Assembly (NCBI GenBank): GCA_041666325.1
Contig: JBAYHC010000002.1
Span: 51,635 to 115,634, forward strand
Direction of reading: 5' to 3'
Length of the DNA: 64,000 nucleotides
Source: Patescibacteria group bacterium
GTDB lineage: Bacteria; Patescibacteriota; UBA1384; XYA2-FULL-43-10; 1-14-0-10-43-13
A model generated the notes under the pieces. That model was not told where the DNA came from and searched no databases. It saw only the letters and a list, made by a program, of their open reading frames with translations. The translations under genes and the position numbers were made by a program. Below, piece by piece: positions 1,251 through 58,061 of the stretch (its first letter is position 1; every line of letters starts with the position of its first letter).

Positions 1251-2501
1251 ATGGAATCGTTGGCATATATACTTCTTTACTTAGTGCCATTTGAGAGAAT
1301 CCCATCAATTGAGATTTTCGGGCTAACGGCAAGATTGAGTACATTTGCAATCTTGGTGTTTGTCTTAATCTTCCTGCCTGGTTTTTTGTACAAGAAAAAA
1401 TATTTACCAATATCATCCATTGATAAATCTATTATTGCATTTCTTCTGATTACTTATTCGTCCATCTTGGTGGCGGAAGATAAAAAGCGGGCGCTGATCG
1501 TTGCTGCTCTCCTAACATTTGTTATCTGTGGCTACTTATTAGTAACCCGTGTGCTGCGCGTAAAATTTAACTTTGAAAAAGTATCCAAGGTGATTATCTG
1601 GTCTGCGTTAGCGACTGCCTTATTTGGCTTTTTCCAGTTCTTTGGCGATAGCCGTTTCGGCTTGCCGGCCAATGTGACGGGACTCATTCCCAGATACACA
1701 AAAGAGATATTGGGTTTTGCCAGAGTCCAATCAGTCGGCATGGAGCCTCTTTACTATGCTAACTTTTTGTTCCTTCCGATTTTTATTCTGTCCAGCCGAA
1801 TCTTGACTGCAGCCAAGAAGCCAGCTGTCTTTGACCTTGTCTCGCTCACAATAGTTTTGTCTGCCTTTATTTTGTCCTTGTCTCGTGGGGCTTATGCTGG
1901 TTTCGCTGCTGGTATTGTTACTCTGATTGCTTTGTTGGTCATCTTTTCTCATCTGAGAAAGCATGCTTGGAAACTGGTAATTGTTGGTTTGGTCGCCTGG
2001 GGGTTGTCTCAGATGGCCGTGCTGGATGTTTCTGGTGGTCAGGGTGTGACAGATTTTACGGAACAGGTGACTGTGCCAGAGAAAACAGCCGGAGCGTCGA
2101 CTAATCCCAGACTAGAGTCATACCGTGAAGCCATCCGGTTGTTCAGAGAAAATCCGATTTTGGGCGTGGGAATCGGCAACTACGGTGTTGTTTCTAAATT
2201 TGAGAAGAATATTGCCGAGGCCGGGTATATTATTGTAAATAACCAATACCTAGAAACTTTAGCAGAAACCGGGATTGTCGGTTTTGTCTCCTTTGCCGTA
2301 CTAATTTTTCTTCTTATCGTCAAGCTGTTTCGCGCCTTGAGGCTCAACAAGGCAAATGCGCCATCCATTGCTCTGACGTTGACCCTCGTCTCGGTTTTGA
2401 CTCAATATAACTTTTTCTCAACTATTTATATTCTATATATTTGGATAGTGGTGGCTCTTATAGAATCGATGCCGATAGCAACAGGGGAAGGGGACAAGTG
2501 A
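1251..2501 (+). CDS. O-antigen ligase / Wzy_C family polytopic membrane protein
   Basis: 416 aa, ~10 predicted TM helices, Wzy_C-like loop motif LSLSRGAYAGFAAG; RBS taggagag upstream of ATG. Confidence 0.6.
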   Translation: MESLAYILLYLVPFERIPSIEIFGLTARLSTFAILVFVLIFLPGFLYKKKYLPISSIDKSIIAFLLITYSSILVAEDKKRALIVAALLTFVICGYLLVTRVLRVKFNFEKVSKVIIWSALATALFGFFQFFGDSRFGLPANVTGLIPRYTKEILGFARVQSVGMEPLYYANFLFLPIFILSSRILTAAKKPAVFDLVSLTIVLSAFILSLSRGAYAGFAAGIVTLIALLVIFSHLRKHAWKLVIVGLVAWGLSQMAVLDVSGGQGVTDFTEQVTVPEKTAGASTNPRLESYREAIRLFRENPILGVGIGNYGVVSKFEKNIAEAGYIIVNNQYLETLAETGIVGFVSFAVLIFLLIVKLFRALRLNKANAPSIALTLTLVSVLTQYNFFSTIYILYIWIVVALIESMPIATGEGDK

Positions 2502-4030
2502 AGCAAGATAAGCTCGGGAAGAAATTTGTCGTCCCGGTGATTATGCTTGCGCTCTTTTTCTTGGCCCTAAATATTCTCTGGTCTTACCTGGACAAGACTC
2601 CACCGCATTGGGATATGGCCAGGCATCTATCCAATAGTCTTGACTATCATCGGTATTTGATCGATCTTAATTGGCGCAAGCTGATCTTTAATTACTCATA
2701 TTACCCACCCTTTTATTATTGGCTGACTGCCCTGTGGTATTTGGTTGTTGGCAGGTCGATTGATGCTGCAATTTCAACAAATCTGTTCTTTGTTGTAGCA
2801 CTTGCGATCAGTGTTTATTTCAGTGCGAAGAAATTACAAGACGAAAGATCTGCTTGCTTGGCCGCTCTTCTTGCGTTAACCTTTCCGATGCTGTCGAGCC
2901 AATTTAAAGAGTTTCAGCTGGATGCACCGCTGACAGTGATGGTTTCTCTTGGCCTAACGTTTCTCTTGTATAGCGATAATTTTCGCAATAGAAAATCGAT
3001 TGTCTTTCTGGGTATCGTCTCTGGCCTGGCCATGCTTACGAAGTGGACCTACGCTGCTTATGTGCTTGTGCCATTGATTTATCTATTGGCAGAATCATTA
3101 CTTAAATTTCCCAGAGAGAGAATTAGCATTCTGAAAAATGCTCTTATCGCCGCGATTGCTACATCGATTATCGCCGGACCCTGGTACACGCATAATCTGT
3201 CCGACATCAAGCGAGATGTTGACGGAAGCGGTATAAATGCTGCTCTGGCCGAGGGCGATCCGGTCGGCTTGACGTTGAAAGCATTCATGTTTTATTTTTG
3301 GACGTTCATTGAGCATCATTTTTGGCTTATCGGCACTATAATTTTCTTGGTTGGGTTGGTGGTCCTGCTCAGCAATCGCGAATCACGCCGCAAGTATGCG
3401 ATATATCTGATCTCCGTCATTGTCGGTTATATCATCTTTTCGACTTTTCCCAACAAAGATGCCAGATTTATCATGCCGATCGTTCCCTCTGTGGCCATAA
3501 TCATTATCGGTTTCATGTCCCTGTTACCAAAGACTCCAAGAGCATTCCTGGCAGTCTATTTGATTATCTTTGCTTTTTTCACCTTCTTTGAAACCACCTT
3601 CAGCTTGCCATTCACTAAAAGCATCTCATGGCAAACGGAGGGTAAGCACTGGATCAATGTTTATCTGGAGAGGAGCTACACCGTTACGGCGCCAAGCCAA
3701 CTTGATTGGCATTATGACGTAATTGTTTCCAGAGCTAGATCTGACGCAGGCGAGGACAGAACTATTCAGTTTCTGGGACAAGACCGCTCTGAGTTTAATC
3801 GATGGGCTTTGGCATATTACAGCAGGCTTTATGGTATGGAGTGGGTTGGCGAAAATACATCTAGCGTCAATTTCCGCTATCTCGTATTTCGTGAAGCCGG
3901 GGAAAGCTATGCCCAAAAAGAAGAGGAATTGTTTCGAGAGGGGTTTTCCCCTGATGTCATGGGCCAGTGGATTCTTCCAGATGGAACGAGCGCCTACCTG
4001 ATAAAGATAGAAGGGGAGCAAGATGTTTAA
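2441..4030 (+). CDS. GT-C fold glycosyltransferase, PMT_2/ArnT-like (family 39/83-like) membrane protein
   Basis: 529-aa polytopic membrane protein; N-terminal region PPHWDMARHLSNSLDY resembles PMT/ArnT family; likely real start GTG at ~2498 after RBS aggggaagggga (ORF frame opens at 2441). Confidence 0.5.
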   Translation: MDSGGSYRIDADSNRGRGQVKQDKLGKKFVVPVIMLALFFLALNILWSYLDKTPPHWDMARHLSNSLDYHRYLIDLNWRKLIFNYSYYPPFYYWLTALWYLVVGRSIDAAISTNLFFVVALAISVYFSAKKLQDERSACLAALLALTFPMLSSQFKEFQLDAPLTVMVSLGLTFLLYSDNFRNRKSIVFLGIVSGLAMLTKWTYAAYVLVPLIYLLAESLLKFPRERISILKNALIAAIATSIIAGPWYTHNLSDIKRDVDGSGINAALAEGDPVGLTLKAFMFYFWTFIEHHFWLIGTIIFLVGLVVLLSNRESRRKYAIYLISVIVGYIIFSTFPNKDARFIMPIVPSVAIIIIGFMSLLPKTPRAFLAVYLIIFAFFTFFETTFSLPFTKSISWQTEGKHWINVYLERSYTVTAPSQLDWHYDVIVSRARSDAGEDRTIQFLGQDRSEFNRWALAYYSRLYGMEWVGENTSSVNFRYLVFREAGESYAQKEEELFREGFSPDVMGQWILPDGTSAYLIKIEGEQDV

Positions 4031-6543: not shown

Positions 6544-7770
6544 ATGAGCAAAATCTTAATTGATGGCAGATTTGTGGGTGTTGGCGAATCAATGACTCGC
6601 TATACTCTGGAAATCCTGCGGGGTGTTTTGGAGCTGGACAAAGAGAATGAGTACACATTGCTCGTTCGGCCGCAGGGATTAGGGGCAATCAATGAATTTT
6701 TTGGTGAATCGGAAATCAAAAGACACGAATCAGGGAGTGACCCTTTTCGAGCCGAGATTAAAGATTCAAGCTTTATGATTCAAGTACTCGACATACCTCA
6801 TTATTCCTTGCCTGAGCAAACAAAGTTGCTGCAATACTTAAATAAAAGCAAGTATGACCTGGTCCACTTTATCCAGTTCAATCACCCTGTCCGCTACAAG
6901 GCGCCCTATGTTGTGACCGTGCACGATTTGACCATGGTGGGCTACTTGCACAGATCGAATCCGCTTAAGCGTTTAGCCTTTGGCAGAGTGATGAAATCTG
7001 CCGTCAGGGATTCAAGGCGGATAATTACCGTTTCTAATACATCTCGTGATGAAATCGTTGAGTATTATCGGATTGACAAGGACAAGATTGATACTGTTTA
7101 CAATGGCATTAATCATGAGCGCTACAATGCCCTGATTGAGGATAAAGAGCTGAAAACTAAACAATTTAGGAAGAAGTACGAGATTGATGGTGATTACTTG
7201 CTCTACACTGGGATGTGGAAAAAGCACAAGAACTTGCTCAGGCTTTTGAAAGCCTTCGAGCAAGTAAAATCCAAAATCCAAAATCCAAAATCCAAAAATA
7301 TAGAAGGCTTGCAACTAGTATTGGTGGGGAAGAAGGACGAGAGCGAGCCAGAGGTGCTTGCTGAAATTAAAAGAATCAACAACCTAAAATCGAAAATCAA
7401 AGATCGAAAATCTATTGTAACGACTGGCTATATCAAAGAAGAAGAGTTGCCGGTGGCCTATGCCGGGGCATTGGCATATGCTATTCCCTCACTCTCTGAG
7501 GGGTTTGGTCTGCCGCCGCTCGAAGCCATGGCTTGTGGTGCGCCTGTTATTTCATCGAATGTTTCCTGTATGCCGGAGGTCTTGGGTGACGCACCGCTTT
7601 ATTTTGATCCTTATGATGTCGATGATATTGCTGGTGCGATAGAACAAACAGTAGAAAGTCGGGAACTAAGGAACGACTTGATTAAGAAGGGGCTGGTCCA
7701 GGCCAAAAAGTACTCATGGGATAAGGCGGCGAGAGAGACGTGGGAAGTGTATAAAAAGTTGCTAGGATAA
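6544..7770 (+). CDS. Glycosyltransferase family 1 (GT4-like) with internal low-complexity K/S-rich linker
   Basis: GT1 signature [23 protein letters not shown]; start taken at MSKILIDG (ORF frame opens 6505); contains heptanucleotide repeat 7266-7293. Confidence 0.85.
7266..7299. repeat. Perfect tandem heptanucleotide repeat (AAAATCC)x4 plus partial copy, inside GT4 CDS
   Basis: Direct reading: aaaatcc aaaatcc aaaatcc aaaatcc aaaaata; encodes [10 protein letters not shown]; second degenerate repeat aaaatcgaaaatcaaagatcgaaaatc at ~7384-7420. Confidence 0.9.
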
Positions 7771-7873
7771 TATTTTATTCTATATGTTAGCTAGTAAGGC
7801 AGTAGGGCAATAAGGAGGTAGAGCACTAAGACTCTGAGTCTCAGTCAGAGTACTTTTTGTGTGGGTATTAAAT

Positions 7874-7913
7874 AAAAAAGACCGGCGGCACCCCAAGAAG
7901 GGGGCGCCACCGG
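7874..7913 (-). terminator. Rho-independent terminator of high-GC lipoprotein gene
   Basis: minus strand: CCGGTGGCGCCCC-cttctt-GGGGTGCCGCCGG followed by TCTTTTTTATTT; immediately downstream of stop at 7939. Confidence 0.7.
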
Positions 7914-7938
7914 CGTGTGTAATCGAACGTGCCAGGAT

Positions 7939-8889
7939 CTACCTGGCGGTGTGAACCTGCATCGGCAGGTGCGGCGGGTCCGCGCTGGCGTTTACCGGCT
8001 GGACCTGCAGCCCGCGTGCGCGGGTGATGACCCGCACCTGGCGGCGGAAGTGGTCATCGGTCCCGACCGTGCCCCACCACAGGTAGACGCCATTGGAGGC
8101 GAACTTCCAGCGGCGGGGCTGGTCCGTGCCTGTCACGGGCGTGGGCTGGGGCAGCGTGCCGCCGACGGGGGTAAAGGCGTACTGGACGCCCTCGGTTACC
8201 TCCGCGTTGGCGGCATCGTAGACCTTGGGCAGGATCTCCTGACCGTTGCCGGCGAGACACTGGTCGCCGAAGAGCGAGAGCTCGTCCGGCGTGGTGTCCT
8301 CCGGATCGTAGCTCCAGAGCTTGAGCAGGTGGGGGCTGACCCGCACCTTGCACGTCAGCTCGAACCTGGCGAAGCGCAGCCCCGAGGCTTCGGTCGGCTT
8401 CACGCCGACGATCAGGTCGTACGTGCCCGCCGCCGGCTTGTAGATGCCCGGGGCGGCCGGTGTGACAACTGTCGTGCCCGAGCTTGTGACCAGCCGGTAA
8501 TCCAAGATGAACTTGTCACTTGGCTGCCCACCGGCAGTTATGTCCTCGATCCAGCTTGCCAGCCACTCGTCTTTGCAGGCCCAGCGGTTGGTGGCGTTGG
8601 CACCCTCGAGCTCGACCCACTTGCCATTGGGGTCGGCGTTGGAGCTGCCGACCCAGAACGGCACTGTCAGCCGATAGATGCGCGTCTCCGGCTCGAGCCG
8701 GAATGAGTTGGCGTTCCGGTCGATGACCGGAGTCACGGTCGTGCCACCCGGCGGGGGCGGGTTGGTGCCGCCACCGGATGACGAACCGTTCCCGTTGGTG
8801 TTGGAGTTGTCGAGGACCGTTCCGCCTCCGCCCCCACAACCGCCAACACCGATACCAGCACACAACACTACCAGCAAAAGGTACCTCAT
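7939..8889 (-). CDS. High-GC (~67%) secreted lipoprotein, unknown function (foreign-composition islet 1)
   Basis: 316 aa; N-terminus MRYLLLVVLCAGIGVGGCGGG = signal peptide with Cys lipobox and Gly/Ser/Pro-rich linker; GC far above flanks; RBS gaaaggaaggga before ATG. Confidence 0.6.
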   Translation of the reverse strand: MRYLLLVVLCAGIGVGGCGGGGGTVLDNSNTNGNGSSSGGGTNPPPPGGTTVTPVIDRNANSFRLEPETRIYRLTVPFWVGSSNADPNGKWVELEGANATNRWACKDEWLASWIEDITAGGQPSDKFILDYRLVTSSGTTVVTPAAPGIYKPAAGTYDLIVGVKPTEASGLRFARFELTCKVRVSPHLLKLWSYDPEDTTPDELSLFGDQCLAGNGQEILPKVYDAANAEVTEGVQYAFTPVGGTLPQPTPVTGTDQPRRWKFASNGVYLWWGTVGTDDHFRRQVRVITRARGLQVQPVNASADPPHLPMQVHTAR

Positions 8890-9051
8890 GATGTGTCCCT
8901 TCCTTTCGTTACGTTTGGATGCTCCTGAACGGGCGGTGAAGTATGTGCTTTTTGCGAATTCCGGCGCCGGTGGAAGCCTCGAGAGGCAGGGCTGGCGTGG
9001 GCGGCTGAAGCAAAAAGGACATACGAGCCAGTGTAAGTAACGTAACTAGCT

Positions 9052-9080
9052 TTTATATCACAAAACGGTACTAATGTCAA
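9052..9080 (-). promoter_or_regulatory. Sigma70-like promoter (TTGACA-17-TATAAA) driving islet-1 lipoprotein gene, ~155-nt GC-rich 5'UTR
   Basis: minus strand reads TTGACAttagtaccgttttgtgaTATAAA; AT-rich promoter abutting GC-rich transcribed region. Confidence 0.5.
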
Positions 9081-9246
9081 GATTGAAAAGGTAAATCATT
9101 CATGATATTGTAGCGGTGACTGATTGAGAGCTCAAATGGTGCCAAGTTTGTTGTACTTGGCTCAGTTTTTAATAAACTAATCTAATATCATTACCCTCAC
9201 CCCAACCCTCTCATAGAGGGAGAGGGAACAGGGAAGAAAGGAAACC

Positions 9247-27876: not shown

Positions 27877-28701
27877 TCAATTGGTCAGTTCAGCCTCTTT
27901 TCGATAGAGGTCGCATAGGCGGCCAAGCACGACAAGCAGGGTGATTTGTGAAGTGAGGGTATCAACATCAACAGGCTGGAGCTCGGCCCCATGTCCTGGC
28001 TCCCAGGGATGAGCCATCCAAAGCATACCGCCACTCGGCGGGACCTTGAAGCGCAGTCCTGTCGGGAGATTAATGATTGTTTCAAGCCAGGACACATCGC
28101 TCTCGTCGCCAGCCATGGCTTTGTATGCTAGTTTGACTGGTGCTTCCAGGTCGGGCCAACTATAACATTGGCCTTTTTGTGATAACCAATTCATCAAATC
28201 AGCTGAAAGTGTAGCACAGAAAGAACCGCCACGCATTCCGAAGGTTGTGATGAAGTGGTCAATCGTCAGCAGCTGGCTGCCTGCGCCGCTTTGTCCTCTA
28301 TCATAGCCAAGGGCAGCAAACAGAAGATTGAGTGTGGCGGATATGCAGAGGATTGAATCATGGTTTGGCCTTCTCCAGCCTGAAACAGGGTCATACTCAG
28401 CTGTTTGCAGGTCAAAGTCTAGAACAACATCACTTGAACTGTCCTCAACGAAACCAACAAACATGTATGATGCAGCTCTACCGAAACCAAAGAAAGCAGT
28501 TCCCTCCTTGTGGTCAGCAAAGGGGGGTAGGCCGGAAAATCCTTTCTGCCTAGCTGCTTCCTGCCAATCTAATCGAAGAAGATTCTCCCAAACATCTCGT
28601 TTTATCCAGATGCGGAGGTTGGGGTCTCCGCCGGCAGCAGATAAGCGGTATCGTTCTGGTATTTTGCCACAAAGCAACGAAGGAACTCTTGCCTTGTCCA
28701 T
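27877..28701 (-). CDS. Hypothetical protein (274 aa), GC-elevated
   Basis: Start ATG 28701 after RBS AGGAGGA; no recognisable motif; ~55% GC. Confidence 0.45.
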   Translation of the reverse strand: MDKARVPSLLCGKIPERYRLSAAGGDPNLRIWIKRDVWENLLRLDWQEAARQKGFSGLPPFADHKEGTAFFGFGRAASYMFVGFVEDSSSDVVLDFDLQTAEYDPVSGWRRPNHDSILCISATLNLLFAALGYDRGQSGAGSQLLTIDHFITTFGMRGGSFCATLSADLMNWLSQKGQCYSWPDLEAPVKLAYKAMAGDESDVSWLETIINLPTGLRFKVPPSGGMLWMAHPWEPGHGAELQPVDVDTLTSQITLLVVLGRLCDLYRKEAELTN

Positions 28702-28767
28702 TTGGCTCTTCCTCCTGTGCGGTATAATTACCGCAAACTCTTTGTAGCACAATAGGATACAGCTCGC

Positions 28768-28801
28768 AACAAAAAAGCCGCGGCGAATGCCAGCGGCGGG
28801 A
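28768..28801. repeat. 34-nt terminator-like element copy 2
   Basis: Exact repeat of 27824-27857, 15 nt downstream of stop of 28816-29742 gene. Confidence 0.8.
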
Positions 28802-28815
28802 GATGAAAGGGGAAA

Positions 28816-29742
28816 TTAGGCTCGGGGAGCGCGGTTCGGTGTAGGACGGATCCCATTGACCTCGACGGTAGCCGAGACAGTATGGGCACGCTCCTCGATG
28901 CGCTGTCGCATCCGGTCCAGGGCTTCCTTAATAGCCAAGATGTCCTGATTCGACTGGAACTGTGACAACAAGGTGGCAAGATACTCGATGGCGCCGGTAA
29001 CCTCGGGCACGTCGCCAACGATCTTGGCGAGCCGTGCCAAGATGGCACTCGCCTGGCCGACCGTTTCGACGTTGAGGTTCTCCGGGTCAACCAAGGCGTC
29101 AAGCATCCGCAAACAGGTCGCCGTGTCGGCCGTCTCGATCGAAATGGGTTGGTCAGACACGGGCTGTTGTCTTGGCTGCATAATGGCTGCGACTGCAGCC
29201 TGCACGTCCGGGGCAAATTCCGGCTTGGACTCAGGGGCAATATCAGGTGCTACCAAGGTGGCACAATATCCGTAGTCACTGAGATTGCCATCGTTCCCAT
29301 AAGTCAAACGTGTGAACAATATTCCGCTTGTGTCTCCGTGTCGAAATACAACATAGCTTTGGTCAAACACTGCGCTGCTGAGTGTGCCTTCGTTCAAAAA
29401 GAAGATTCTGATTTGGTTATCTCTGGTTTTGTACCATTGAACAACCGGTAGCCAAGTGGCACGACCGACTTTTTCGGCCTCTTCGACAATCTGTCTTGTT
29501 GCCCTGAACTTGTCCATAGCAGCCAGGACTGCTTTTTCGCCATAATACGCGCCTAAGCCGAAGAGCAGAATCGGTATGCCGTATACAAAAATGTTCATCA
29601 TGTGCAACGAACGAAGGACAAAAAAGATGATTATGCTAGCAACGGCAGCGCAACCAGTTGGTAGCCATCTTGGGGTGGGCTCCGATACCTCACCTGAGCG
29701 GTCTGGGACTTCGATCTCAAGTGGAATACACGGATTACTCAT
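28816..29742 (-). CDS. Hypothetical membrane-anchored protein (2 N-terminal TM, beta-rich middle domain, acidic helical C-terminus)
   Basis: 308 aa; TM segments AAVASIIIFFVL and IFVYGIPILLFGLGAYY; unknown function. Confidence 0.45.
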   Translation of the reverse strand: MSNPCIPLEIEVPDRSGEVSEPTPRWLPTGCAAVASIIIFFVLRSLHMMNIFVYGIPILLFGLGAYYGEKAVLAAMDKFRATRQIVEEAEKVGRATWLPVVQWYKTRDNQIRIFFLNEGTLSSAVFDQSYVVFRHGDTSGILFTRLTYGNDGNLSDYGYCATLVAPDIAPESKPEFAPDVQAAVAAIMQPRQQPVSDQPISIETADTATCLRMLDALVDPENLNVETVGQASAILARLAKIVGDVPEVTGAIEYLATLLSQFQSNQDILAIKEALDRMRQRIEERAHTVSATVEVNGIRPTPNRAPRA

Positions 29743-29904
29743 GTTTTCCCTCTCTCACAGCGTTGTCGCACTCCGGCTCCAGGCACGGAATGCCGACATT
29801 ATTATATGCTTTTCTTTGAATTTGTCAATGTCAGAGGCGCACAATGCGACTCATGTATCAAAAAAGCGGAGTGGTGCTCCGCTGAGAGGTAATTTGCAAA
29901 TGGG

Positions 29905-30756
29905 TCAAAAGATGTATCGAACACCCTGTTGGGTCCAGCCGGCAAAGCCGGTGATGTCCTGATTCTCCCAATTGTCGGCATAGTGTATCAGGTGCATTTT
30001 GCCTCGGATTTCCGCCGGGAGTGTTTGCAGGTCGGCAAGCGGTGCGTGAACGGCACCGGGGAAGAATTGAACATCGTGGAACATAACACTCGACCTATCA
30101 GCATAGAAGTCAATCAATTGCCGGTCAAAGCGTGTGTCGCAGGAAACGAAGACGTGGCCATCGATAAACAAACCATAGCTCAGGAATGAATCTCCCCATC
30201 CCGTGGAGTTATCCGGGGTATGCATAGTGCGGAAGATCTCCAGATCGATGCCAGCGTAATTGCAGCTGAATATCTCGCGTGGTTGCTGCACTTTCCAGCG
30301 TGGTTGGACGATCGAGAAGTAATCAACGAGTGAGAGCCTTCGGCCGTCTGCTTCCTGCTCATTGTACTCAAGGCCGCCACGCAGCGAGCATTCCCAGAGT
30401 ACACGCTGATATTCAGGGGAAACGATCATCTTGAGTTTGTCTTTGCCAAGCATGCGCCGACCTTTGTAGCGGTTGGCTAAGGCTAACGTTTCGATTCCGC
30501 CTATGTGGTCAGCGTGCGAATGGGTGGGCAAGAGCACCTCAATGTCGGTCGGAGCAAGGTTGGCAGTTTGCCGCAATGCGATCTGGGCCTTCTGGCCAAA
30601 ATCAACCAAGATGTGGGTTTTGCCCTTAATGATAAGGAAATTGGTCTGGAAGTTGCGCTCGGCGTCCGCCGAGCCAACGCCGAGGAAGAAGAGTTCGAGT
30701 TGGCCATCATTTTGAAGACTGTATTTCTCTCCTGGCAACATGCCTCTTGTTTCCAT
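29905..30756 (-). CDS. MBL-fold metallo-hydrolase
   Basis: HxHxDH motif LLPTHSHADHIGG; start ATG 30756 (METRGMLPGEKY) after RBS aaaggga. Confidence 0.7.
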   Translation of the reverse strand: METRGMLPGEKYSLQNDGQLELFFLGVGSADAERNFQTNFLIIKGKTHILVDFGQKAQIALRQTANLAPTDIEVLLPTHSHADHIGGIETLALANRYKGRRMLGKDKLKMIVSPEYQRVLWECSLRGGLEYNEQEADGRRLSLVDYFSIVQPRWKVQQPREIFSCNYAGIDLEIFRTMHTPDNSTGWGDSFLSYGLFIDGHVFVSCDTRFDRQLIDFYADRSSVMFHDVQFFPGAVHAPLADLQTLPAEIRGKMHLIHYADNWENQDITGFAGWTQQGVRYIF

Positions 30757-30864
30757 TGGATGACTCCCTTTCTGTGGGTCAACGTTGAAGCACGCACGAA
30801 CCATACCACAGTGCCACCTAGGTGTCAAATGTAACGCGAAGGAATCGATGATTGACGTGGCCTT

Positions 30865-31242
30865 GTGGCCATGGTAGAATCACGCGTGTATTTTGACGAG
30901 GGAGGGAAGTGGAAGATGCGTAATTCTTTGTGGTATCAGGCGGTGTACCAGGGCACCGGCTTGACGATTGAGCTGGCTGGTTGTTTTGATGGCCAAGACG
31001 TATTCCAGATACGGGAGATTGTGGCCACGATGTATGCCAGGGGATTTAGCCAGGTCATTCTTGACTTTGACAAGGTAGTTTCTCTGGGTGATGAGGGCTT
31101 GCTTGTGCTCTATCAGAGTTACGATCTGGCAAGGAGGAGTAATCGCCAATTTGGTATTATCAATCCCAGTCCAGACGTGCTTCAGCTGCTCAAGCAAACA
31201 CAATCAGAGAGGATTATCTACACCGGTGAGAGCAGGGTATGA
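30865..31242 (+). CDS. STAS-domain protein (anti-sigma-factor-antagonist-like)
   Basis: ~125 aa; LTIELAGCFDGQDVFQIREIV...VILDFDKVVSLGDEGLLVL pattern typical of SpoIIAA/STAS fold. Confidence 0.45.
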   Translation: MAMVESRVYFDEGGKWKMRNSLWYQAVYQGTGLTIELAGCFDGQDVFQIREIVATMYARGFSQVILDFDKVVSLGDEGLLVLYQSYDLARRSNRQFGIINPSPDVLQLLKQTQSERIIYTGESRV

Positions 31243-31367
31243 GCGACTAGCTCGTGCCCAACAGACAGAACTGTGCGATTGATACGCGGGCGGCCTTAGT
31301 GGGTCGCCCTTTATTGTTATTACCTGATTGTTGTGGTATCTAGTTATCAATCGGAGGTGAGAGTGGA

Positions 31368-31925
31368 GTGATGACGAAACCAGTCGAGACTGTTGAAGCA
31401 GCTTGGCGGCAGCTTGATCCGTCGCCGGAAAAGTTTCGTCAAGCTTTCTTTGCGCCTGGTGTTTCGGTTGCGACAATCCGGTTGAGTTGGCAGCAGAAGC
31501 GTCAACTACAGGATAGCGTGATCGCCGGCATCATTGGGGACGAGACTTTTGACTTGGATGATTTTCTTTATCTGGCGGAACATTGTTGTCTTGATTCGTG
31601 GGCTGGAGTCGGAGATCGCAATGGTCGCTGGGATGATGCTGGAGAGATTCTTTATGCCGAGGCGGTCAAAGCCGGCAATGAGTCTGCTTGCCGAAGCATC
31701 GAGAAATGGAAGGACCGACCAGCTATATTATATGAAGGTGCGCGCATGTATGTTGGTCGGCTTTTCTTTCGCCTAGGGGAGGAATTGAGGTGTACCAGCA
31801 TTAACACTGCGAAGAGATTCGTCGTCTCAGTTCTTATCGAGAGAAGCTTGCGTCCGAGTAAACCGCAACAGCGGCGCATCAATTGGAGTGAGTTTGAGCT
31901 TGTCGACCCGCAGCCTCCGTCATAG
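31368..31925 (+). CDS. Hypothetical protein (185 aa)
   Basis: ORF with RBS ggaggtgag upstream; no motif recognised. Confidence 0.4.
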   Translation: MMTKPVETVEAAWRQLDPSPEKFRQAFFAPGVSVATIRLSWQQKRQLQDSVIAGIIGDETFDLDDFLYLAEHCCLDSWAGVGDRNGRWDDAGEILYAEAVKAGNESACRSIEKWKDRPAILYEGARMYVGRLFFRLGEELRCTSINTAKRFVVSVLIERSLRPSKPQQRRINWSEFELVDPQPPS

Positions 31926-31977
31926 GAGGCCTTTTTAAAACAAAAACTCCGGCGGGGCCGGAGGAAGCGGAACACAA

Positions 31978-32739
31978 TCAAATGTTCAGTTGGGGACGAG
32001 CCTGGTCGTTCTTGGGCACATCCTTCTCGAGGATGACCTCAGTCTTGCTGCCTATTTCAAAAACTTCTCCCGATATCAATATCCGTGCCATCGGTGCTTG
32101 CCAGCCATCTATGCCTGATGGGACGAGAATGGATCGGAATGATCCTTTGGCAAGACAGTCTACTTGGCCATTTGCTCGCCGGTAAATGCGTATTCCCTCA
32201 AATTGGAATTTACTGTTGATAATATTTACCAACTCTAGCACCTGCCTATAGCAAGAGCTGTATTCATTGAAGTAGCCGAGAATGTTGGATAGCGTAATTT
32301 CAATCAGGTTGGCTGGCAATCTGGTTCGAGGTTGCGGTCGTCGAATAGCAGATACTACCCTCCAATCATGCGATAGGCTGATTTCAACAATCTGTTTCTC
32401 TGTATAGCTCTCGTCGGCTGCGTGTGTGACGGACGATAACGCCAGATAGATATCGGCTGGGTAACTATCGGGTTGGAGTGTGCCGCCAATCTGAATGGGC
32501 TTACAGTAGATGCCGATTGGGTTTCCGCTAAAGGATAATTTGCAAGATGGATCGGCAAGCTCAAGCTCTGTTTGGCTTTGGCCGTGATAGTGTAAAAACT
32601 CTCTGCTCGCCGAGTTTACTTTGTCTGCAGTTGTGTAAACTCTAGCGCAGAGTTCATCAAGCTCCAAGAGTGCTCTTCGTAGATTGGGCGTAGATTTGCG
32701 CGCGTTCTTTCCGATCAATCTGTACCTCCTTCCAGCCAA
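31978..32739 (-). CDS. Hypothetical protein (<=253 aa), lower GC than neighbours
   Basis: ORF only; start uncertain. Confidence 0.35.
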   Translation of the reverse strand: MAGRRYRLIGKNARKSTPNLRRALLELDELCARVYTTADKVNSASREFLHYHGQSQTELELADPSCKLSFSGNPIGIYCKPIQIGGTLQPDSYPADIYLALSSVTHAADESYTEKQIVEISLSHDWRVVSAIRRPQPRTRLPANLIEITLSNILGYFNEYSSCYRQVLELVNIINSKFQFEGIRIYRRANGQVDCLAKGSFRSILVPSGIDGWQAPMARILISGEVFEIGSKTEVILEKDVPKNDQARPQLNI

Positions 32740-33696: not shown

Positions 33697-34764
33697 CTAC
33701 GGCTTGAAGAGTGGCCAGCCTATTCCTATTACCACCATGAGTGCGACAAAGGCGCTGATGATGGCTGTTTGGAAGCGTGCGACTGGGTTTGACATCTGGA
33801 CCCAGAATTCAGCGATCTTACCCTTGGGCTGCTTGAGCAGCGGTTTTGGTTCGGGATTGAGCAGGAAGAAGATAAAGCTGCAGATGAGTGAGAAGATAAT
33901 CAACAGTGCCAGGATGGCTCTCCCTCCTATTCTGTGGGAAAACTCTGGTGTCGGCGCTGTGCTAGGGCTGCCTATTCCAGAGAGAACCCCCTGCTTTTTC
34001 ATGGTTTCGATTGTCTGGTTGACCACGAACACGATCTCTTTCTGCCCCATGGGCTCGACAATTCCTGCAAGCTTGCCTGCCTCTCTCTGCTTTCTCATCC
34101 AGCTCAGGAAGGTTTCCTGGTTTGCTCTGCCGCCGAGCGGTTGAGCCTTGATTGCCCTGATCTCCTTCCATGTGTCGCGAATCTGCTCCAGCGCAAACTG
34201 CTGTGTTTGGAGAATGACAGGGGACGAGTATACCACGCGAGTTGCCGGTATGTCTGCAGTGGCTTCGGTGGGTTCGTGTTGAGTAGTATAGGCTTTAGTG
34301 GGAGGGGGGACGACGGGAGCGCTGGGGATTGGTCCGGCAGGACCAGCCTTGGGCAAAGTGTTTTTCGTCAGGGTGCCTCCGGCCAGAGCCGATCTTGGCA
34401 CTCGCTGTTGAGGTGTGGGCAACGCTTGCTGCAGAAGCTTGTTTTGCTCCCTGACAAGCGTGCGTAGCTCTTCGACTTCTGCGCGGTAGCTCCTGATCTC
34501 TAGTTTGAGGTTATCCAGCTCGGTATTTGGCGGGGTCTCGGCGATTGGCGGTGTTGCAGTATTCGGAGCTATTGCGGGCGACGATAGCGCGATTTGGGTC
34601 GTTGAGCCAGTGCTCTCGGGCACAGCTGTTGCAACGACATTTGTTGCCATCGGTGCGGTTGCGGTCAGTAGCGGTTGCTGTGCCTTGGTCGGCACGACTG
34701 CGACGGTCAGGCTGAGCCCGAATGCCGCGATGATTCCTGCTGCTTTGCGTGCGAACGATTTCAT
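33697..34764 (-). CDS. Secreted Pro/Thr/Ala-rich protein with coiled-coil and C-terminal hydrophobic anchor segments (hypothetical)
   Basis: 355 aa; signal peptide MKSFARKAAGIIAAFGLSLTVAVVPTKA; ~57% GC. Confidence 0.5.
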   Translation of the reverse strand: MKSFARKAAGIIAAFGLSLTVAVVPTKAQQPLLTATAPMATNVVATAVPESTGSTTQIALSSPAIAPNTATPPIAETPPNTELDNLKLEIRSYRAEVEELRTLVREQNKLLQQALPTPQQRVPRSALAGGTLTKNTLPKAGPAGPIPSAPVVPPPTKAYTTQHEPTEATADIPATRVVYSSPVILQTQQFALEQIRDTWKEIRAIKAQPLGGRANQETFLSWMRKQREAGKLAGIVEPMGQKEIVFVVNQTIETMKKQGVLSGIGSPSTAPTPEFSHRIGGRAILALLIIFSLICSFIFFLLNPEPKPLLKQPKGKIAEFWVQMSNPVARFQTAIISAFVALMVVIGIGWPLFKP

Positions 34765-39347: not shown

Positions 39348-39446
39348 GCACGGCTAAGGGTGAGATCCGACGCCTCGACCTGGCAAACGCCGGGGCGGGG
39401 CTTTTCGTATTTAGTATGCGCTGCTACAATGTCCTAGTAATGTGAC

Positions 39447-39560
39447 TGTCATCCCAGCCTGCAGGCCTGAAAGGTACCCTCTGGGTCTTGAGAGCTGGGA
39501 TCCAGAAATTAGTTTCCGGGAATTTATCACTGGATTCCAGGTCAAGCCTGGAATGACACA
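39447..39560. mobile_element. MITE-like palindromic element copy 2 (left flank of GIY-YIG gene)
   Basis: TGTCATCCCAGCCTGCAGG...CTTGAGAGCTGGGATCCAG...CCTGGAATGACACA. Confidence 0.55.
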
Positions 39561-39564
39561 GAAG

Positions 39565-39855
39565 ATGAAATCCTATTATATTTACATTCTTGCTAGCAAG
39601 CGCAATGGCACTTTGTATATTGGTGTTACGTCTGATTTGGTTAAACGGATTTGGGAGCATAAAAATAAAGTGGTTAAGGGTTTCACCAGCGAATACAATG
39701 TTTCGTTGCTGGAATATTATGAAGAAACGAGTGATGTGAGAAGTGCTATCAAAAGAGAAAAACAGTTGAAAGCGCGGAGACGAGAATGGAAACTAGAATT
39801 AATTGAGAAAGAAAATCCTGAGTGGAAAGATTTGTATCAGGATTTACTATCTTGA
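39565..39855 (+). CDS. GIY-YIG nuclease family protein (stand-alone, 96 aa)
   Basis: MKSYYIYILASKRNGTLYIGVTSDLVKRIWEHK = canonical GIY-YIG motif; ORF frame extends upstream into repeat but first ATG is 39565. Confidence 0.8.
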   Translation: MKSYYIYILASKRNGTLYIGVTSDLVKRIWEHKNKVVKGFTSEYNVSLLEYYEETSDVRSAIKREKQLKARRREWKLELIEKENPEWKDLYQDLLS

Positions 39856-51224: not shown

Positions 51225-51253
51225 TTGACAAATTAAGCAATTTATGGTAGTAT
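51225..51253 (+). promoter_or_regulatory. Sigma70-like promoter TTGACA-17-TAGTAT for islet-2 lipoprotein
   Basis: TTGACAaattaagcaatttatggTAGTAT. Confidence 0.55.
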
Positions 51254-51307
51254 CTGCGCATCGTCAATCGGGGCATTGGGCCACATTCAGTGAAGGAGGA
51301 AACGGCT

Positions 51308-52108
51308 GTGAAGAGAACATTGTGCGGATTGATGCTTGGTTTCGCTCTGGTGGCGCAGGGGTGCGGTGGCGGGAGCAACAGCCCCGTGGTACCTGCCGCG
51401 ACCGAAGGACGCTTCTTGGTCGCCTTCGAGCAGTACGACGCGCAGATCAGCGACCACGTCACCCCGGTGATTGAGAGCGGTGTCGAGTTCCGTATCGACA
51501 TCGCCGGCCTGTCATCGCCGCGGTCACGGGGAGGGATCGATCCCTCATCTGCCACCTATCGCTGGCTCAAGGATGGCCGGCCGTTCGATCCGGGCATTGT
51601 CGTGACGGCGGGTCAGGAGCGGCGTGGTTGGATGATCGGAATCCCCAACCGGCACGAGGACTTTGGTGACACGGCCTTCCAGGTCGTGGCCGAGATCACC
51701 GACCAGGGGCAGACCTTCATCGCCCGCCGGACCTTCTTCGTCCGGCCCTGGTCCACGGTCAAACCGGCAGCACCGATTCTGCAGACGGATGCCTTCTCGG
51801 GTGACCCGGCCAGGTCGCGCTATTACAACGAGGTCGGGGGCTATTACGTCGGCATTCTGGACGCGAGGATCGACATCCTCAACGGCGGTGGCGCCGAGGG
51901 CGCGCGCGAGGCCAAGGGGCGTGGCCCCGGCGGATCGTACTGGGAGGTATCCACCAATGGCACTCGCTTGCCGCTTACACCAAGCAGGCCGGGCTGGTGG
52001 ACGGTGTCGCTGGTGAGCCCCGGGGGTTACGTTTCCCGGCCGGCTTGGCTCTGGGTCTACGACCCGGCCAACCCGGGGGCAACCCCGCCCGCCCGCCCGG
52101 ATTGGTAG
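51308..52108 (+). CDS. High-GC (~66%) secreted lipoprotein, unknown function (foreign-composition islet 2)
   Basis: GTG start after RBS GAAGGAGG (8-nt spacer); VKRTLCGLMLGFALVAQGCGGGSNS signal peptide with Cys lipobox; alternative GTG at 51290. Confidence 0.6.
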   Translation: MKRTLCGLMLGFALVAQGCGGGSNSPVVPAATEGRFLVAFEQYDAQISDHVTPVIESGVEFRIDIAGLSSPRSRGGIDPSSATYRWLKDGRPFDPGIVVTAGQERRGWMIGIPNRHEDFGDTAFQVVAEITDQGQTFIARRTFFVRPWSTVKPAAPILQTDAFSGDPARSRYYNEVGGYYVGILDARIDILNGGGAEGAREAKGRGPGGSYWEVSTNGTRLPLTPSRPGWWTVSLVSPGGYVSRPAWLWVYDPANPGATPPARPDW

Positions 52109-52128
52109 TTCTGTTTCGCATTCACAAG

Positions 52129-52160
52129 GTCGGGCGCTTCGGCGCCCGACCCGTTTTTTT
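52129..52160 (+). terminator. Rho-independent terminator (UUCG tetraloop)
   Basis: GTCGGGCGC-ttcg-GCGCCCGAC perfect 9-bp GC stem, then CCGTTTTTTT. Confidence 0.85.
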
Positions 52161-52231
52161 ACTTAAACCCTATTCCTTGAGATCTGAGGCTGTATTTGCT
52201 ACTATGAGTGCAAGTCTTTTATCACACAAAT

Positions 52232-55525: not shown

Positions 55526-55571
55526 TTGACAAAATGCCTTTTTTGTGCTATACTCGCGAAGTTATCGCGAG
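55526..55571 (+). promoter_or_regulatory. Consensus promoter TTGACA-17-TATACT plus +1 hairpin CTCGCGA-agtta-TCGCGAG for islet-3 operon
   Basis: TTGACAaaatgccttttttgtgcTATACTcgcgaagttatcgcgag. Confidence 0.65.
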
Positions 55572-55599
55572 CGTGTGATAACTCTGAAGGGGGAAGATC

Positions 55600-55788
55600 G
55601 TGTTAAAAGTCATGTTGACTATCATCGCCGGTTGGGCGGTGTTCGGCTTTTCGGTTTGGTTCTTTGTCACCAACAAGACGTGGGACATCGGGGGCAACCA
55701 GCTCCTCGCCACGATAATGTTGGCTGCAGCAGGGATACTGCTTGTCATCTTCGGCATCATCGCACTGATCGAAAGGAGACGCCGGTGA
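55600..55788 (+). CDS. Holin-like small membrane protein (62 aa, 2 TM, C-terminal ERRRR), high GC
   Basis: GTG start after RBS gaagggggaag; MLKVMLTIIAGWAVFGFSVWFFVTNKTWDIGGNQLLATIMLAAAGILLVIFGIIALIERRRR; stop TGA overlaps GTG of next gene (GTGA). Confidence 0.45.
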   Translation: MLKVMLTIIAGWAVFGFSVWFFVTNKTWDIGGNQLLATIMLAAAGILLVIFGIIALIERRRR

Positions 55789-56906
55789 GAGGCATTCTGT
55801 GGAAGACGTTCGTTGGATTGTTTGTGTGGCTTGGCGGCAAATTGCCTGGGTGGAAGAAGTCTGCCCGGCAGCAGTACCGCCGTCACGGGGGTGTTATCCG
55901 GGGTTTGGGGTACGCTGCAATCGGTCTGGTTCTTCTGTCTCTGGCCAGTCACTACTTCGGTGATGACCATAAGCAGATGACCAAGAAGTCACACAAGCCG
56001 GGCAGGGTGGCCACACGGCCCGATCACCCGACGAAGCCGGAGTGGCAGACTTCGACGCCAAAGAAGCCGAATCGTACGTGGCGGGAACGGGGTCTGACGA
56101 CGGCGCAATTGCGCCAGATCTACCGCCACCCGCGGGTCCAGCAGGGGCCGCACGGTCCTGAGCTGGTGGGGCAGACCAAGCCCCACCCCAACCCGTGGAA
56201 GCCGACGTCGCGCGGGTTGCTCAGTGGCCTAATCGTCGTCGTCGACCCAGGTCACGGCGGCGTGGATCCCGGCAGCTCCTTCGAGCATGCCGGCGCCGGC
56301 TTCTGGGAATCGGCCTACACATACAGGGCCGCCTACGAGCTCATGCAGCTTCTGCGGGCCAAGGGGGCTACAGTCCACCTGACCTGTTGGAGTGACGTCA
56401 TGACTTTGCCGGAACCGCCGCGGGCCGCTGTCCCCATGCCGCTGCCACGTGACGCCCGAACTATTCGCGAAGGTCTGGCTGTCAGATTGTCGACGCGGGT
56501 GCTCAACGCCCGTATCGACTACGCCGATGACTTGGCTAAGCGGTACGGGGGAAAGAGGGTCCTTTTTGTCTCGCTCCATACTGATTGGGAGAGGCAGGGG
56601 CTTTCCGGCGCTTTCGTCTGCATCAACCCCGGCGAGCCGGCTCCGCTCCTGGCCACGTGCATCGCGGCCGAGCTGGAGCGGAAGAACTACCGCCGGCGCG
56701 ACAACGGCAAGCCGCGTTCCTGCGTCGTGCCTCAGGCGAAGAAGTATGTGCTCTTCGCCGGCAAGACGCCGCAGCGGGTCATCGTCGAGATGGCGACGAC
56801 CACGGCGCCGGCTGACGGCTTCCGTATTCGCTGGGAGCGCAACCGGATGGATCTCCTGAAGACCATCCTGGCGGGGATCGAGAGCTATGCCGCGGAGACG
56901 TGGTGA
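55785..56906 (+). CDS. N-acetylmuramoyl-L-alanine amidase (Amidase_3 family) with N-terminal TM anchor and basic Pro-rich linker, high GC (~63%)
   Basis: GTG start after RBS AAGGAG; catalytic-domain motifs VVVDPGHGGVDPGS, FWESAY, LFVSLHTD; TM segment GLGYAAIGLVLLSLASHYF. Confidence 0.7.
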   Translation: MRGILWKTFVGLFVWLGGKLPGWKKSARQQYRRHGGVIRGLGYAAIGLVLLSLASHYFGDDHKQMTKKSHKPGRVATRPDHPTKPEWQTSTPKKPNRTWRERGLTTAQLRQIYRHPRVQQGPHGPELVGQTKPHPNPWKPTSRGLLSGLIVVVDPGHGGVDPGSSFEHAGAGFWESAYTYRAAYELMQLLRAKGATVHLTCWSDVMTLPEPPRAAVPMPLPRDARTIREGLAVRLSTRVLNARIDYADDLAKRYGGKRVLFVSLHTDWERQGLSGAFVCINPGEPAPLLATCIAAELERKNYRRRDNGKPRSCVVPQAKKYVLFAGKTPQRVIVEMATTTAPADGFRIRWERNRMDLLKTILAGIESYAAETW

Positions 56907-57102
56907 TGAAAGGAGAGATGTTCGTCAAATCCAGGGCCGGCCCTTGCCATGCGCGAGGCCGGCCCGAATTGTTTCGATACGATCTTTGATGTAACATTGC
57001 CTTGCCGGCACGACCAGTGTTGGCAAGCACAGTGTTTCAGAGAGGGGGATCAATCTTTGAGAAGAGAAGAAAAATCGGATCGTCTGCGAAGACGGCATGA
57101 GA

Positions 57103-58061
57103 TAATGGGTTTTCTTGTGCTTTGCACTCTGATTCTACCATTGCTTTTGGTTGTTAGATGGTTCTGGTTGAATATCAAGCAAAGCGAAAAACGTTTGCCA
57201 TCATCTGGGAGCAGAGCTCAGTCCTTGTCCTCTGCCTGGTTACGCTCATTTACGATTCCAATCGAGTGCCACAAACATCTTGATCAGCACATTGTTTCCA
57301 ACGGGCGAGTTCCGGATCTTGGCGAGCGTATGGGCAAAGTGGATAAGCTCAAAAAACTGATCGACCAGCTTTGCGCAGAGAGAGGAATCAGCCCGGAATT
57401 GGCTTATGGTCTTATTCTCCATGAGTCGCATGGCGACGTGTGGAGTGTTGATTTCAAGACCAAGCTCGGCCAGGTTCCGGTGACGCAAGCTCATGTTGGG
57501 CTGGGCCAACTGAGTCAAGATTTTCTGCCGGAAGCGATGCGGGTGGATCCAGCTCGCTTGCGTGCTGCTGACGCGTGGCAGAGGGCGACACTCGATCGCA
57601 TTGCCCGCAAGCAGTGGCCGCCGACTGCGGCGGAACGTGTTTTGCTTAGCAAGTGGGCAGCCCTCGATTTGCGCTTCAATGCCAGATGGAATCTAGAGAA
57701 AACGCTTGATTATGTCAAGCAAAATCTCGAGATAACAGGCAATGAAACACTCGCTATCCTGGCACATTTGCGAGGAACTCGCTATCCATTGTGGTGGGTG
57801 GCGCGTTATCGCTTTGACCATGAACGAGTGCCTTACAACGAGGCTGACCGAATTCGACTTCATCGAACAACTGCGCCATATGTTAAGTCTGAGGGCATTG
57901 ACCTTTTTGACCTGATCGTTGACACGGGAGCCGAGGGCTCTCGCTATCGCAGCGATCGCAAGGCCCAAGTTTATTGCTTTTCTATCCTTGCTTGGAGTGA
58001 GCTATATGCTCGCCATCGCAAAACACTTCGTCCGCCCCGATTCAACGGGGCGGCTTTTTAA
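57103..58061 (+). CDS. Putative lytic-transglycosylase-like (SLT-like) protein with N-terminal TM; hypothetical
   Basis: GLILHESHGD...AHVGLGQLSQDF loosely matches SLT E-S...GLMQ pattern but spacing atypical; start at MGFLVLCTLILPLLLVV. Confidence 0.3.

Follow-up and report, generated by a model that had tools for sequence, protein, structure and literature searches.

The DNA analysed here is a 64,000-nt window of the genome of a Patescibacteria group bacterium (assembly GCA_041666325.1, contig JBAYHC010000002.1, positions 51,635 to 115,634). Between a GT4 glycosyltransferase gene (Pfam, E = 1e-29) and the H+-pyrophosphatase gene hppA (Pfam, E = 7e-267), a short block of high guanine-plus-cytosine (GC) content, termed islet 1, encodes a single 316-aa lipoprotein on the reverse strand. 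A previous sequence-only reading had placed the block between these two genes, an assignment that the Pfam matches to both flanks confirm, and had described it as an autonomous promoter-lipoprotein-terminator unit of foreign composition. A monocistronic unit is indeed present, with an exact TTGACA-17-TATAAA promoter and a terminator with a 14-bp stem (Table 1). Related loci place it in a different setting. There, the stretch between GT4 and hppA forms a hypervariable slot. Islet 1 is one case of a surface-protein locus that recurs with variable content and is not a one-off foreign insertion, and its promoter is a resident of the chromosome.

The GC-rich unit and its lipoprotein

The GC content of the 64-kb window averages ~0.46 in 1-kb windows and reaches 0.654 at 8001-9000. 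At 200-nt resolution it steps from 0.42 (7700-7899) to 0.70 (7900-8099) and is back to 0.37 at 9000-9199. Over 7875-9040 GC is 0.648, close to the ~67% first claimed and a strong compositional outlier (z = 6.7 against background windows of 1200 bp with mean 0.463, standard deviation 0.028 and maximum 0.56). The concern that the genome as a whole might be too heterogeneous for the block to stand out is partly real, as the window holds two further islets at 0.62-0.66 GC and several patches at 0.52-0.56. The lipoprotein open reading frame (ORF) has GC at first, second and third codon positions (GC1/2/3) of.62/.52/.855, a canonical coding pattern, and the mature part.63/.50/.88. The leader has the ~155 nt originally proposed and is less uniformly GC-rich than was stated, with 0.56 overall and 0.62-0.67 in its central ~90 nt. 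The GC-rich tract extends into noncoding DNA, over ~90 nt of leader and the 3' untranslated region (UTR). GC dips to 0.47-0.52 over the Shine-Dalgarno and signal-peptide stretch at 8836-8930, which has the GC-rich leader on one side and the GC-rich mature part on the other. Signal-peptide GC3 is native-like at 8/17 versus 0.88 in the mature part (binomial P ~1e-4), and this dip could mark a mosaic junction or reflect avoidance of 5' mRNA structure. A chimeric signal peptide as a general rule was rejected, with pooled GC3 of.64 in signal peptides versus.655 in mature parts across 12 lipoproteins (2 from the window, 10 from relatives), among which the dip occurs in the window gene only.

The promoter at 9052-9080 on the minus strand matches TTGACA-17-TATAAA exactly and includes an extended -10 TG (TTGACA-17-TGaTATAAA). 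Four matches to TTGACA-N16-18-TATAAW occur in the window where 0.03 are expected, which identifies this as the genome's own promoter type. At the other end of the unit, the terminator stem spans 7914-7881 on the minus strand and is followed by CTTTTTTATT. The leader matches no Rfam family and folds no better than shuffled sequence (z = -0.27). It contains a possible 37-codon upstream ORF that may be a remnant of an earlier coding sequence. The long ORF on the opposite strand was rightly dismissed as a product of high GC, since its GC1 of.87 mirrors the true frame.

Table 1. Features of islet 1 and its immediate borders, in positions of the 64-kb window
Feature	Position	Strand	Basis and remarks
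-35 hexamer TTGACA of the lipoprotein promoter	9075..9080	-	exact consensus; within the block TTCAATCTTGACA
Extended -10 TGATATAAA (TGn + TATAAA), 17-nt spacer	9052..9060	-	sequence and promoter scan; relatives have TGnTATAAT-like boxes at the same aligned place
Divergent hppA promoter TTGAAA-17-(TG)TATTGT, back-to-back with the lipoprotein promoter	9083..9111	+	promoter scan; conserved in the hppA upstream alignment
5' leader, ~155 nt	8890..9044	-	transcription start inferred
Possible 37-codon upstream ORF (MSFLLQPPTPALPLEASTGAGIRKKHILHRPFRSIQT), uncertain significance	8909..9022	-	GC1/2/3 =.55/.50/.68; no Shine-Dalgarno site
Shine-Dalgarno site GGAAGGG, 7 nt before ATG	8897..8903	-	read from sequence
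Coding sequence of the 316-aa prolipoprotein, stop included, begins MRYLLLVVLCAGIGVGGCGGGGG	7939..8889	-	ORF and codon periodicity; exact 316-aa record P0008
Signal peptide with lipobox, MRYLLLVVLCAGIGVGG then C18	8836..8889	-	fits the PROSITE PS51257-type rule; R2, hydrophobic core
Gly/Ser/Asn/Pro-rich tether, residues 19-52	8734..8835	-	translation; GC1/2/3 =.59/.74/.82
Mature ectodomain, residues 53-316, beta-rich, GxYxhxh strand motifs (AAGTYDLIVGV, NGVYLWWGTVGTDD)	7942..8733	-	GC3 = 0.88
Intrinsic terminator: 14-bp stem (11 G-C), 6-nt loop, T-run	7871..7914	-	terminator scan
Terminator-like hairpin that follows GT4; convergent with the terminator of the lipoprotein gene	7831..7851	+	terminator scan
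Spurious 263-aa antisense ORF	7915..8706	+	GC1/2/3 =.87/.50/.63; no Pfam match

The N-terminus of the encoded protein, M-R-Y-LLLVVLCAGIGVG, places a positive charge before a hydrophobic core, and a lipobox G-V-G-G-C with its cysteine at residue 18 was recognised by eye and by regular expression. A lipobox of the PROSITE PS51257 type follows the rule [LIVMFWSTAG]2-[LIVMFYSTAGCQ]-[AGS]-C, with the cysteine between residues 15 and 35. The proposal of a 316-aa lipoprotein with a lipobox and a Gly/Ser/Pro linker therefore holds, the linker being the Gly/Ser/Asn/Pro tether of residues 19-52. Neither Lgt nor LspA is among the genes with Pfam results in the 64-kb window, which is a part of the genome. 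Public records of the protein (MFA5927099.1, MFA6531732.1 and JGI) start it at an internal GTG, codon 52, and give 265 aa. The 316-aa start is favoured on three counts, as a Shine-Dalgarno site precedes it, a signal peptide follows from it, and codons 19-52 show coding periodicity (GC3.82). The shorter annotation loses the signal peptide, lipobox and tether and so hides the lipoprotein nature of the product.

The ectodomain has no Pfam match even at E <= 5 and no match in the PDB by sequence search. A phmmer search of 1.84 billion representatives returned two weak matches only, at E = 2e-5 and 3.5e-4, both to repeat proteins. In the better of these, with E = 2e-5 over the whole library, residues 214-280 align with repeat units of P0002, a 1356-aa repeat-rich protein, at 27-30% identity; the units look PKD-like by eye only and the islet-1 alignment to them is weak. 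A single-sequence AlphaFold2 model was mostly strand at a pLDDT of 38, was unusable and was not taken into a fold search. An Ig/PKD-like surface ectodomain is a reasonable but unproven suggestion, prompted by the weak repeat-unit match, by strand motifs typical of Ig sandwiches and by the strand content of the failed model.

These features also bear on whether islet 1 might be non-functional GC-rich DNA in which a long ORF arises only from a shortage of stop codons. GC-rich DNA does yield long ORFs, the 263-aa antisense ORF among them, and the protein has no homologue and no confident fold. Such an explanation is nonetheless very improbable. The periodicity GC3>GC1>GC2 is found in the 316-aa frame only, a well-spaced Shine-Dalgarno site and a lipoprotein signal peptide lie between a consensus promoter and a terminator, and relatives carry analogous lipoprotein genes at the same place.

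A further artefact to be weighed is an assembly chimera, in which a fragment from a high-GC organism was mis-joined into a candidate phyla radiation (CPR) contig; the composition break itself would fit this, and nothing more. Over 18.7 kb the window has only two differences from the JGI contig Ga0376277_0001264 (107 kb), single-nucleotide polymorphisms at 12065 and 12094 (G/C and A/C), both in a VanW-domain gene. These differences mark the two as separate assemblies, and islet 1 with both junctions is identical in them. The islet-1 protein is also encoded in a 264-kb contig and appears in two NCBI 'Patescibacteria group bacterium' protein records from metagenome-assembled genomes, and the region of islets 2 and 3 (see below) is identical in a 231-kb ENA contig and in two Logan assemblies of other runs. 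Given also that a functional promoter and a functional terminator delimit the block and that relatives have analogous fills, the probability of a chimera is negligible, and the objection of an assembly chimera that the sequence-only reading had raised is answered by the agreement of separate assemblies.

The slot in related loci

Scanning metagenomes with GT4 retrieved 50 related loci (numbered with the prefix L), with GT4 identities mostly of 47-58%. Where the loci are long enough to show gene order, Wzy-GT4-gap-hppA-DUF3006-VanW is usually conserved and the content of the gap varies. The slot is empty in L089, L090, L115 and L116, where 76-162 bp of AT-rich DNA separate the flanking genes, so that some relatives lack islet 1 at this position. 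In L085, L086, L093, L101, L104, L105, L107, L108 and L122 the slot is occupied by antisense lipoprotein genes, one or two in number, and large GC-rich fills of 1.7-4.4 kb are found in L121 and L113 (4.4 kb). In L096 a remnant of ~510 bp contains promoter and terminator only. In this empty socket (2390-2513, minus strand) the conserved lipoprotein promoter, TTGACA-17-TATAGT, leads after ~25 nt into the terminator GCTCGCCCCTATCAGGGTGGGCG, and no coding sequence intervenes; the terminator resembles the one after the first cargo gene (A) in L085 and L107.

The promoter tells against the idea that islet 1 arrived as an autonomous unit. The 13-mer block TTCAATCTTGACA is exact in the window and in L085, L086 and L096, and within it 2 bp separate the lipoprotein -35 from the hppA -35, TTGAAA, of the opposite strand. 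When hppA upstream regions are aligned, the window, L085, L086, L096 and L105 retain both divergent promoters and L122 retains them in part; each promoter has a TGn extended -10. The bidirectional block is absent from the empty-slot genomes. The claim that the promoter formed part of an imported unit thus fails, since it is conserved in relatives, and what had been called an autonomous unit is better described as a resident expression socket with exchangeable cargo. On the hppA side of the promoter, the hppA 5' UTR contains a terminator-like hairpin with a T-run at 9141-9161 on the plus strand (GCCAAGTTTGTTGTACTTGGC TCAGTTTTTA), between the promoter at 9083-9111 and the start at 9247, and beyond it a second hairpin (CCCTCTC..GAGAGGG). 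These hairpins could form an attenuator; the region matches no Rfam family.

The cargo of the slot in relatives consists of other antisense lipoprotein or membrane ORFans, mostly mutually unrelated and nearly all GC-enriched. Relative to their own genomes, fills reach.66 vs.52 in L086 (GC3.82-.83),.63 vs.41 for gene A of L107, and.59 vs.45 in L085, which has two lipoprotein genes, A and B. BLASTP and profile comparison found most cargos unrelated, with families formed by L085-A, L107-A and L122 (30-35% identity), by L085-B and L107-B (27%), and by L101 and L104 (86%). Kinship of the L085/L107/L122 family with the islet-1 and islet-2 proteins was rejected at a profile comparison probability of <7%. 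In the 4.4-kb fill of L113 (7222-11628), a 441-aa orphan and small membrane proteins are encoded by ~2 kb of DNA with a GC of.57-.69. The L113 locus lacks hppA and DUF3006 and has a 516-aa membrane protein where they would lie, which may reflect a larger replacement event. A small ORF in the slot of L087 looks GIY-YIG-like by eye only.

Turnover is visible at the level of strains. L108 and L110 have GT4 genes that are 99.7% identical, yet only 165 nt are common to the two beyond GT4, and a recent deletion has occurred in one of these near-identical strains. An 83-aa ORF of L108 (7158-7409, minus strand) is a deletion fusion, in which a lipoprotein signal peptide is joined out of frame to the ~165-nt tail of a membrane-protein gene; the gene, for a 183-aa multi-pass protein, is intact in L110 (2099-2650, minus strand). 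L118 and L119, with GT4 95% identical, begin to diverge ~885 nt after GT4. Substitutions between these two could not be polarised, as the slot contents diverge and there is no alignable outgroup. The best relatives of hppA in reference genomes belong to CPR lineages (69-70% identity), which agrees with the NCBI label, and 80 hppA loci from GTDB had no neighbouring genes in common with the window. Patchy distribution and compositional deviation, two marks of a genomic island, are therefore both seen at this locus.

The GC-rich genes of the window extend beyond the slot. Islet 2 (51230-52170, with a GC-rich core at 51.3-52.15 kb) has the same architecture as islet 1: its promoter is TTGACA-17-(TG)TAGTAT, its leader is short, and its GC-stem terminator has a T-run. 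It encodes a lipoprotein of 266/272 aa, the 266-aa form starting from a GTG at 51308 (VKRTLCGLMLGFALVAQGCGGG), with a coding-sequence GC of.66 and GC1/2/3 of.63/.56/.80. Comparison of the islet-1 and islet-2 proteins gave no homology between them. Islet 3 (55.9-56.95 kb, GC.62) encodes a membrane-anchored Amidase_3 protein. In the same region (55545-58061) the amidase is followed by a 370-aa ORF (GC.51) without Pfam match, in which an 'ESHGD' motif is reminiscent, by eye only, of lytic transglycosylases. On the minus strand at 33697-34764 lies a 355-aa secreted orphan with signal peptide MKSFARKAAGIIAAFGLSLTVAVVPTKAQQ, GC.56 and GC3.62, that belongs to no Pfam family. A mild GC patch (.50-.53) at 27877-32739 holds a STAS-domain protein, several orphan ORFs and a 307-aa metallo-β-lactamase-fold protein that matches the Pfam family Anti-Pycsar Apyc1 (E = 8e-27), and may be related to a mobile element or to defence. 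The plus strand also encodes a small GIY-YIG nuclease-domain protein (39442-39855) and a ComEA-like competence protein (61201-61776; HHH_3, E = 9e-27).

Origin of the high GC

Our results leave the origin of the composition between import from an unsampled GC-rich pool and a GC-enriching force specific to a gene class. The explanation we prefer, to which we would give an even chance, is that islet 1 is an exchangeable surface-lipoprotein cargo from an unsampled GC-rich gene pool, set behind the resident promoter. The GC1/2/3 of the mature part looks like that of a gene from a genome of ~65% GC, the GC-rich tract runs into the noncoding leader and 3' UTR, and the signal-peptide codons are native-like. 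Replacement clearly occurs at the slot, and the window has a gene for a ComEA-like DNA-uptake protein at 61.2 kb. In such a history, recombination with DNA of the unsampled pool would have put the GC-rich body in place of the cargo that the resident promoter had served before, and the deletion bias of the genome would then have trimmed the cargo to roughly the transcribed unit.

Several observations weigh against this explanation. A donor homologue of the islet-1 protein was not found among ~15 billion proteins, and the proposed identification of a donor lineage such as Actinobacteria failed, with self-matches only in a word-indexed search of 5.8 billion clustered proteins and nothing beyond the two weak phmmer matches. 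The searched collection includes the JGI and Logan assemblies that contain the organism and yielded no donor, although no search was aimed directly at a co-occurring one. The islet-2 lipoprotein is a pure orphan, with self-matches only among the 5.8 billion protein clusters, and the islet-3 amidase has only remote relatives (best non-self E = 2.5e-5). Searching phage (50,697 records) and plasmid collections with tblastn gave no usable match. No integrase was found among the neighbouring genes, and no flanking direct repeats or attC-like sites at islet 1; no tRNA adjoins it, the only one in the window being at 61.85 kb. Mobility signatures and donor homologues, the remaining marks of a classical genomic island, are thus lacking. 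Random import would also not predict that the first cargo gene is nearly always a lipoprotein.

The relatives add compositional evidence of the same tendency. In L085 genes A and B each have a GC of.59 and the spacer between them.39; in L107 the values are.63 for A,.44 for the spacer and.51 for B; and the leaders of L093 and L105 have.35-.41, so that in relatives the excess is confined to coding sequence. The A-B pair of L085 and L107 is orthologous, with the same order and an alignable spacer that has a conserved terminator and a TGnTATAAAT promoter. Gene A keeps a GC3 of.69-.74 in both although GT4 is 59%, A 34% and B 27% identical between them. At this depth synonymous sites should have equilibrated, and had there been a single old transfer, passive amelioration should have removed the GC signal. 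The presence of other GC-enriched slot genes, including this vertically inherited pair, makes high GC a recurrent property of the gene class and not proof of one recent foreign insertion. The sequence-only reading was therefore right that the composition is an outlier, and a single recent foreign insertion as its cause is not upheld.

These data could also be explained by a native gene class of clade-specific, very fast-evolving surface genes, inherited mostly vertically, whose high GC arises and is maintained within the lineage by a force acting on their coding sequence. The class would take in the slot genes and the other GC-rich envelope ORFans of the genome. Candidate forces are GC-biased conversion concentrated at highly polymorphic alleles, targeted GC-biased mutation, and selection that acts on properties of the mRNA or DNA. 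The GC excess of the relatives does not go beyond coding-sequence boundaries, with leaders, A-B spacer and 3' flanks at 0.35-0.45, and the A-B pair is still GC-rich after a divergence that must have saturated synonymous sites. Across the window and L085-L127, predicted lipoproteins show a mean GC excess of +0.105 (n = 11) vs +0.012 for the remaining ORFs (n = 293), a difference with Fisher p ~2e-5 when the cut-off is set at +0.05 and a figure drawn mostly from slot lipoproteins, as the loci are centred on GT4. Each islet protein is an orphan or nearly so, the regulatory signals are native and conserved, and C3/(C3+G3) is similar, 0.51-0.67, across all GC-rich coding sequences measured in the correct frame. 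Set against this, the GC-rich tract of the window covers noncoding leader and 3' UTR, signal-peptide codons are native-like, the slot genes of L101 and L104 are nearly without excess, and cargo differs between near-identical strains, so replacement certainly occurs. We know of no mechanism that yields +0.4 GC3 in single genes, and to our knowledge published effects of biased gene conversion in bacteria amount to only a few percent. On this evidence a native class is possible but somewhat unlikely. The broader form of the idea, in which horizontal transfer is not the cause and a gene-class-specific force keeps a clade-wide class of envelope genes above genomic GC in coding sequence only, is put forward tentatively, as rather unlikely. 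It would cover slot lipoproteins, other orphan lipoproteins and the divergent amidase, with an excess of up to +0.2 overall and +0.4 at third positions. Their promoters, spacers and terminators would meanwhile keep a native, conserved sequence, and the enrichment would outlast a divergence that saturates synonymous sites.

A remnant of a phage or mobile element, either a true moron (a phage cargo gene, discussed below) or a superinfection-exclusion lipoprotein left after the element decayed, is improbable. The promoter-gene-terminator arrangement with deviant GC fits the moron definition, Apyc1-like and GIY-YIG genes occur elsewhere in the window, viral genes are often orphans, and phage-encoded lipoproteins such as lambda Bor are a known class. 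On the other hand, the 10 kb to each side are free of phage genes, conserved chromosomal genes form the flanks, the phage records contain no match and the promoter belongs to the chromosome. The GC content of phages also usually tracks that of the host.

Other candidates were considered and rejected. A known gene in another frame was rejected, as the other frames of islets 1 and 2 have no Pfam match. A target of a diversity-generating retroelement was rejected, as there is no pair of template and variable repeats and every islet segment occurs just once in the 64-kb window; no reverse transcriptase is among the window genes scanned. An integron cassette was rejected as well: no suitable attC-like inverted repeat and no integrase were found, and the gene has its own leader and terminator.

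Known systems and the CPR cell surface

Islet 1 would work as a monocistronic expression unit for a cell-surface lipoprotein at the end of an envelope-glycan cluster (Wzy-GT4). In the model proposed, strong constitutive transcription from the divergent promoter would produce an mRNA of ~1.17 kb ending at the hairpin. The prolipoprotein would be exported, lipid-modified at Cys18 and cleaved, and its lipid anchor would keep it on the external side of the membrane. From there the tether of ~35 residues would present a beta-rich, probably Ig/PKD-like ectodomain of ~265 residues at the cell surface. The most plausible place of action of the ectodomain is at contacts with host cells, particles or phage, and it would on that account be under pressure to change. 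The adjoining envelope-glycan genes, the orphan status of the protein and its strain-level turnover point to such a putative contact or recognition role under diversifying pressure.

The architecture would be moron-like in a chromosomal, non-phage context. A moron, by definition, has a promoter and a terminator of its own, deviates in GC and is missing at the syntenic position in related genomes (PMC3594210); such units often encode envelope proteins or lipoproteins. Like the morons of HK97/HK022-type phages, islet 1 consists of one gene that has a sigma-70-type promoter and a factor-independent terminator of its own, has a GC unlike that of its neighbours and shows up as extra DNA when syntenic relatives are compared. 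Three of four moron properties are therefore found (own promoter and terminator, deviant GC, absence in syntenic relatives), and the fourth, location in a phage or prophage, is not, as the flanks are Wzy, GT4, hppA, DUF3006 and VanW in chromosomal synteny. Islet 1 differs further in that its promoter is a resident, conserved chromosomal element that did not arrive with the gene, and in that the site is reused by many different cargos.

Hypervariable surface islands are found by glycan clusters in other bacteria, as in the flexible islands of O-antigen and capsule loci or the metagenomic islands of SAR11 and Prochlorococcus. The slot resembles these in its position at the edge of a Wzy/GT4/PMT_2 envelope-glycan cluster, its strain-level content differences, its orphan envelope genes and its conserved flanks, which are possible recombination arms. 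Such islands are usually AT-richer than the core and many kb long, whereas slot cargo is GC-richer by up to 20 points, spans 0-4 kb and usually comprises one lipoprotein gene behind a fixed promoter. The Vsp, Vlp and Vsa systems of Mycoplasma, in which variable bodies of surface lipoproteins are expressed from a constant 5' module, are similar in this combination of constant module and variable lipoprotein and in the likely surface variation of a wall-poor, host-dependent bacterium. In contrast to these, the slot locus has no paralogue array, site-specific recombinase, or tandem-repeat or homopolymer switch, and it varies between lineages or strains and not within one genome. With integron cassettes it has in common exchangeable single-gene cargo at a fixed site with a resident promoter adjoining; it differs in the attC and integrase features noted above and in cargo that has its own terminator and leader. 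Islet 1 thus combines known kinds, as a moron-like cargo in a chromosomal hypervariable surface-protein slot. The aspect left unexplained is the persistent GC enrichment, restricted to coding sequence, of orphan envelope genes across a CPR clade. Our literature search found nothing on point for GC-rich islands or lipoproteins in CPR.

CPR bacteria (Patescibacteria) are thought to live attached to host cells, and the surface proteins that mediate this contact are largely unknown. Such proteins are hard to find when they have no homologues, and the slot locus provides a positional and compositional handle on CPR surface genes: an antisense lipoprotein at a conserved bidirectional hppA promoter, at the end of a glycan cluster and with excess GC. 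In practical terms, the 265-aa public annotation of the islet-1 protein drops the signal peptide and masks its surface nature. The locus also raises an evolutionary question, namely whether GC-rich orphan genes in reduced genomes are imported or whether their composition is actively maintained. Should the clade-wide form of the latter, which we consider rather unlikely, prove true, it would represent a gene-class-specific compositional force not described so far.

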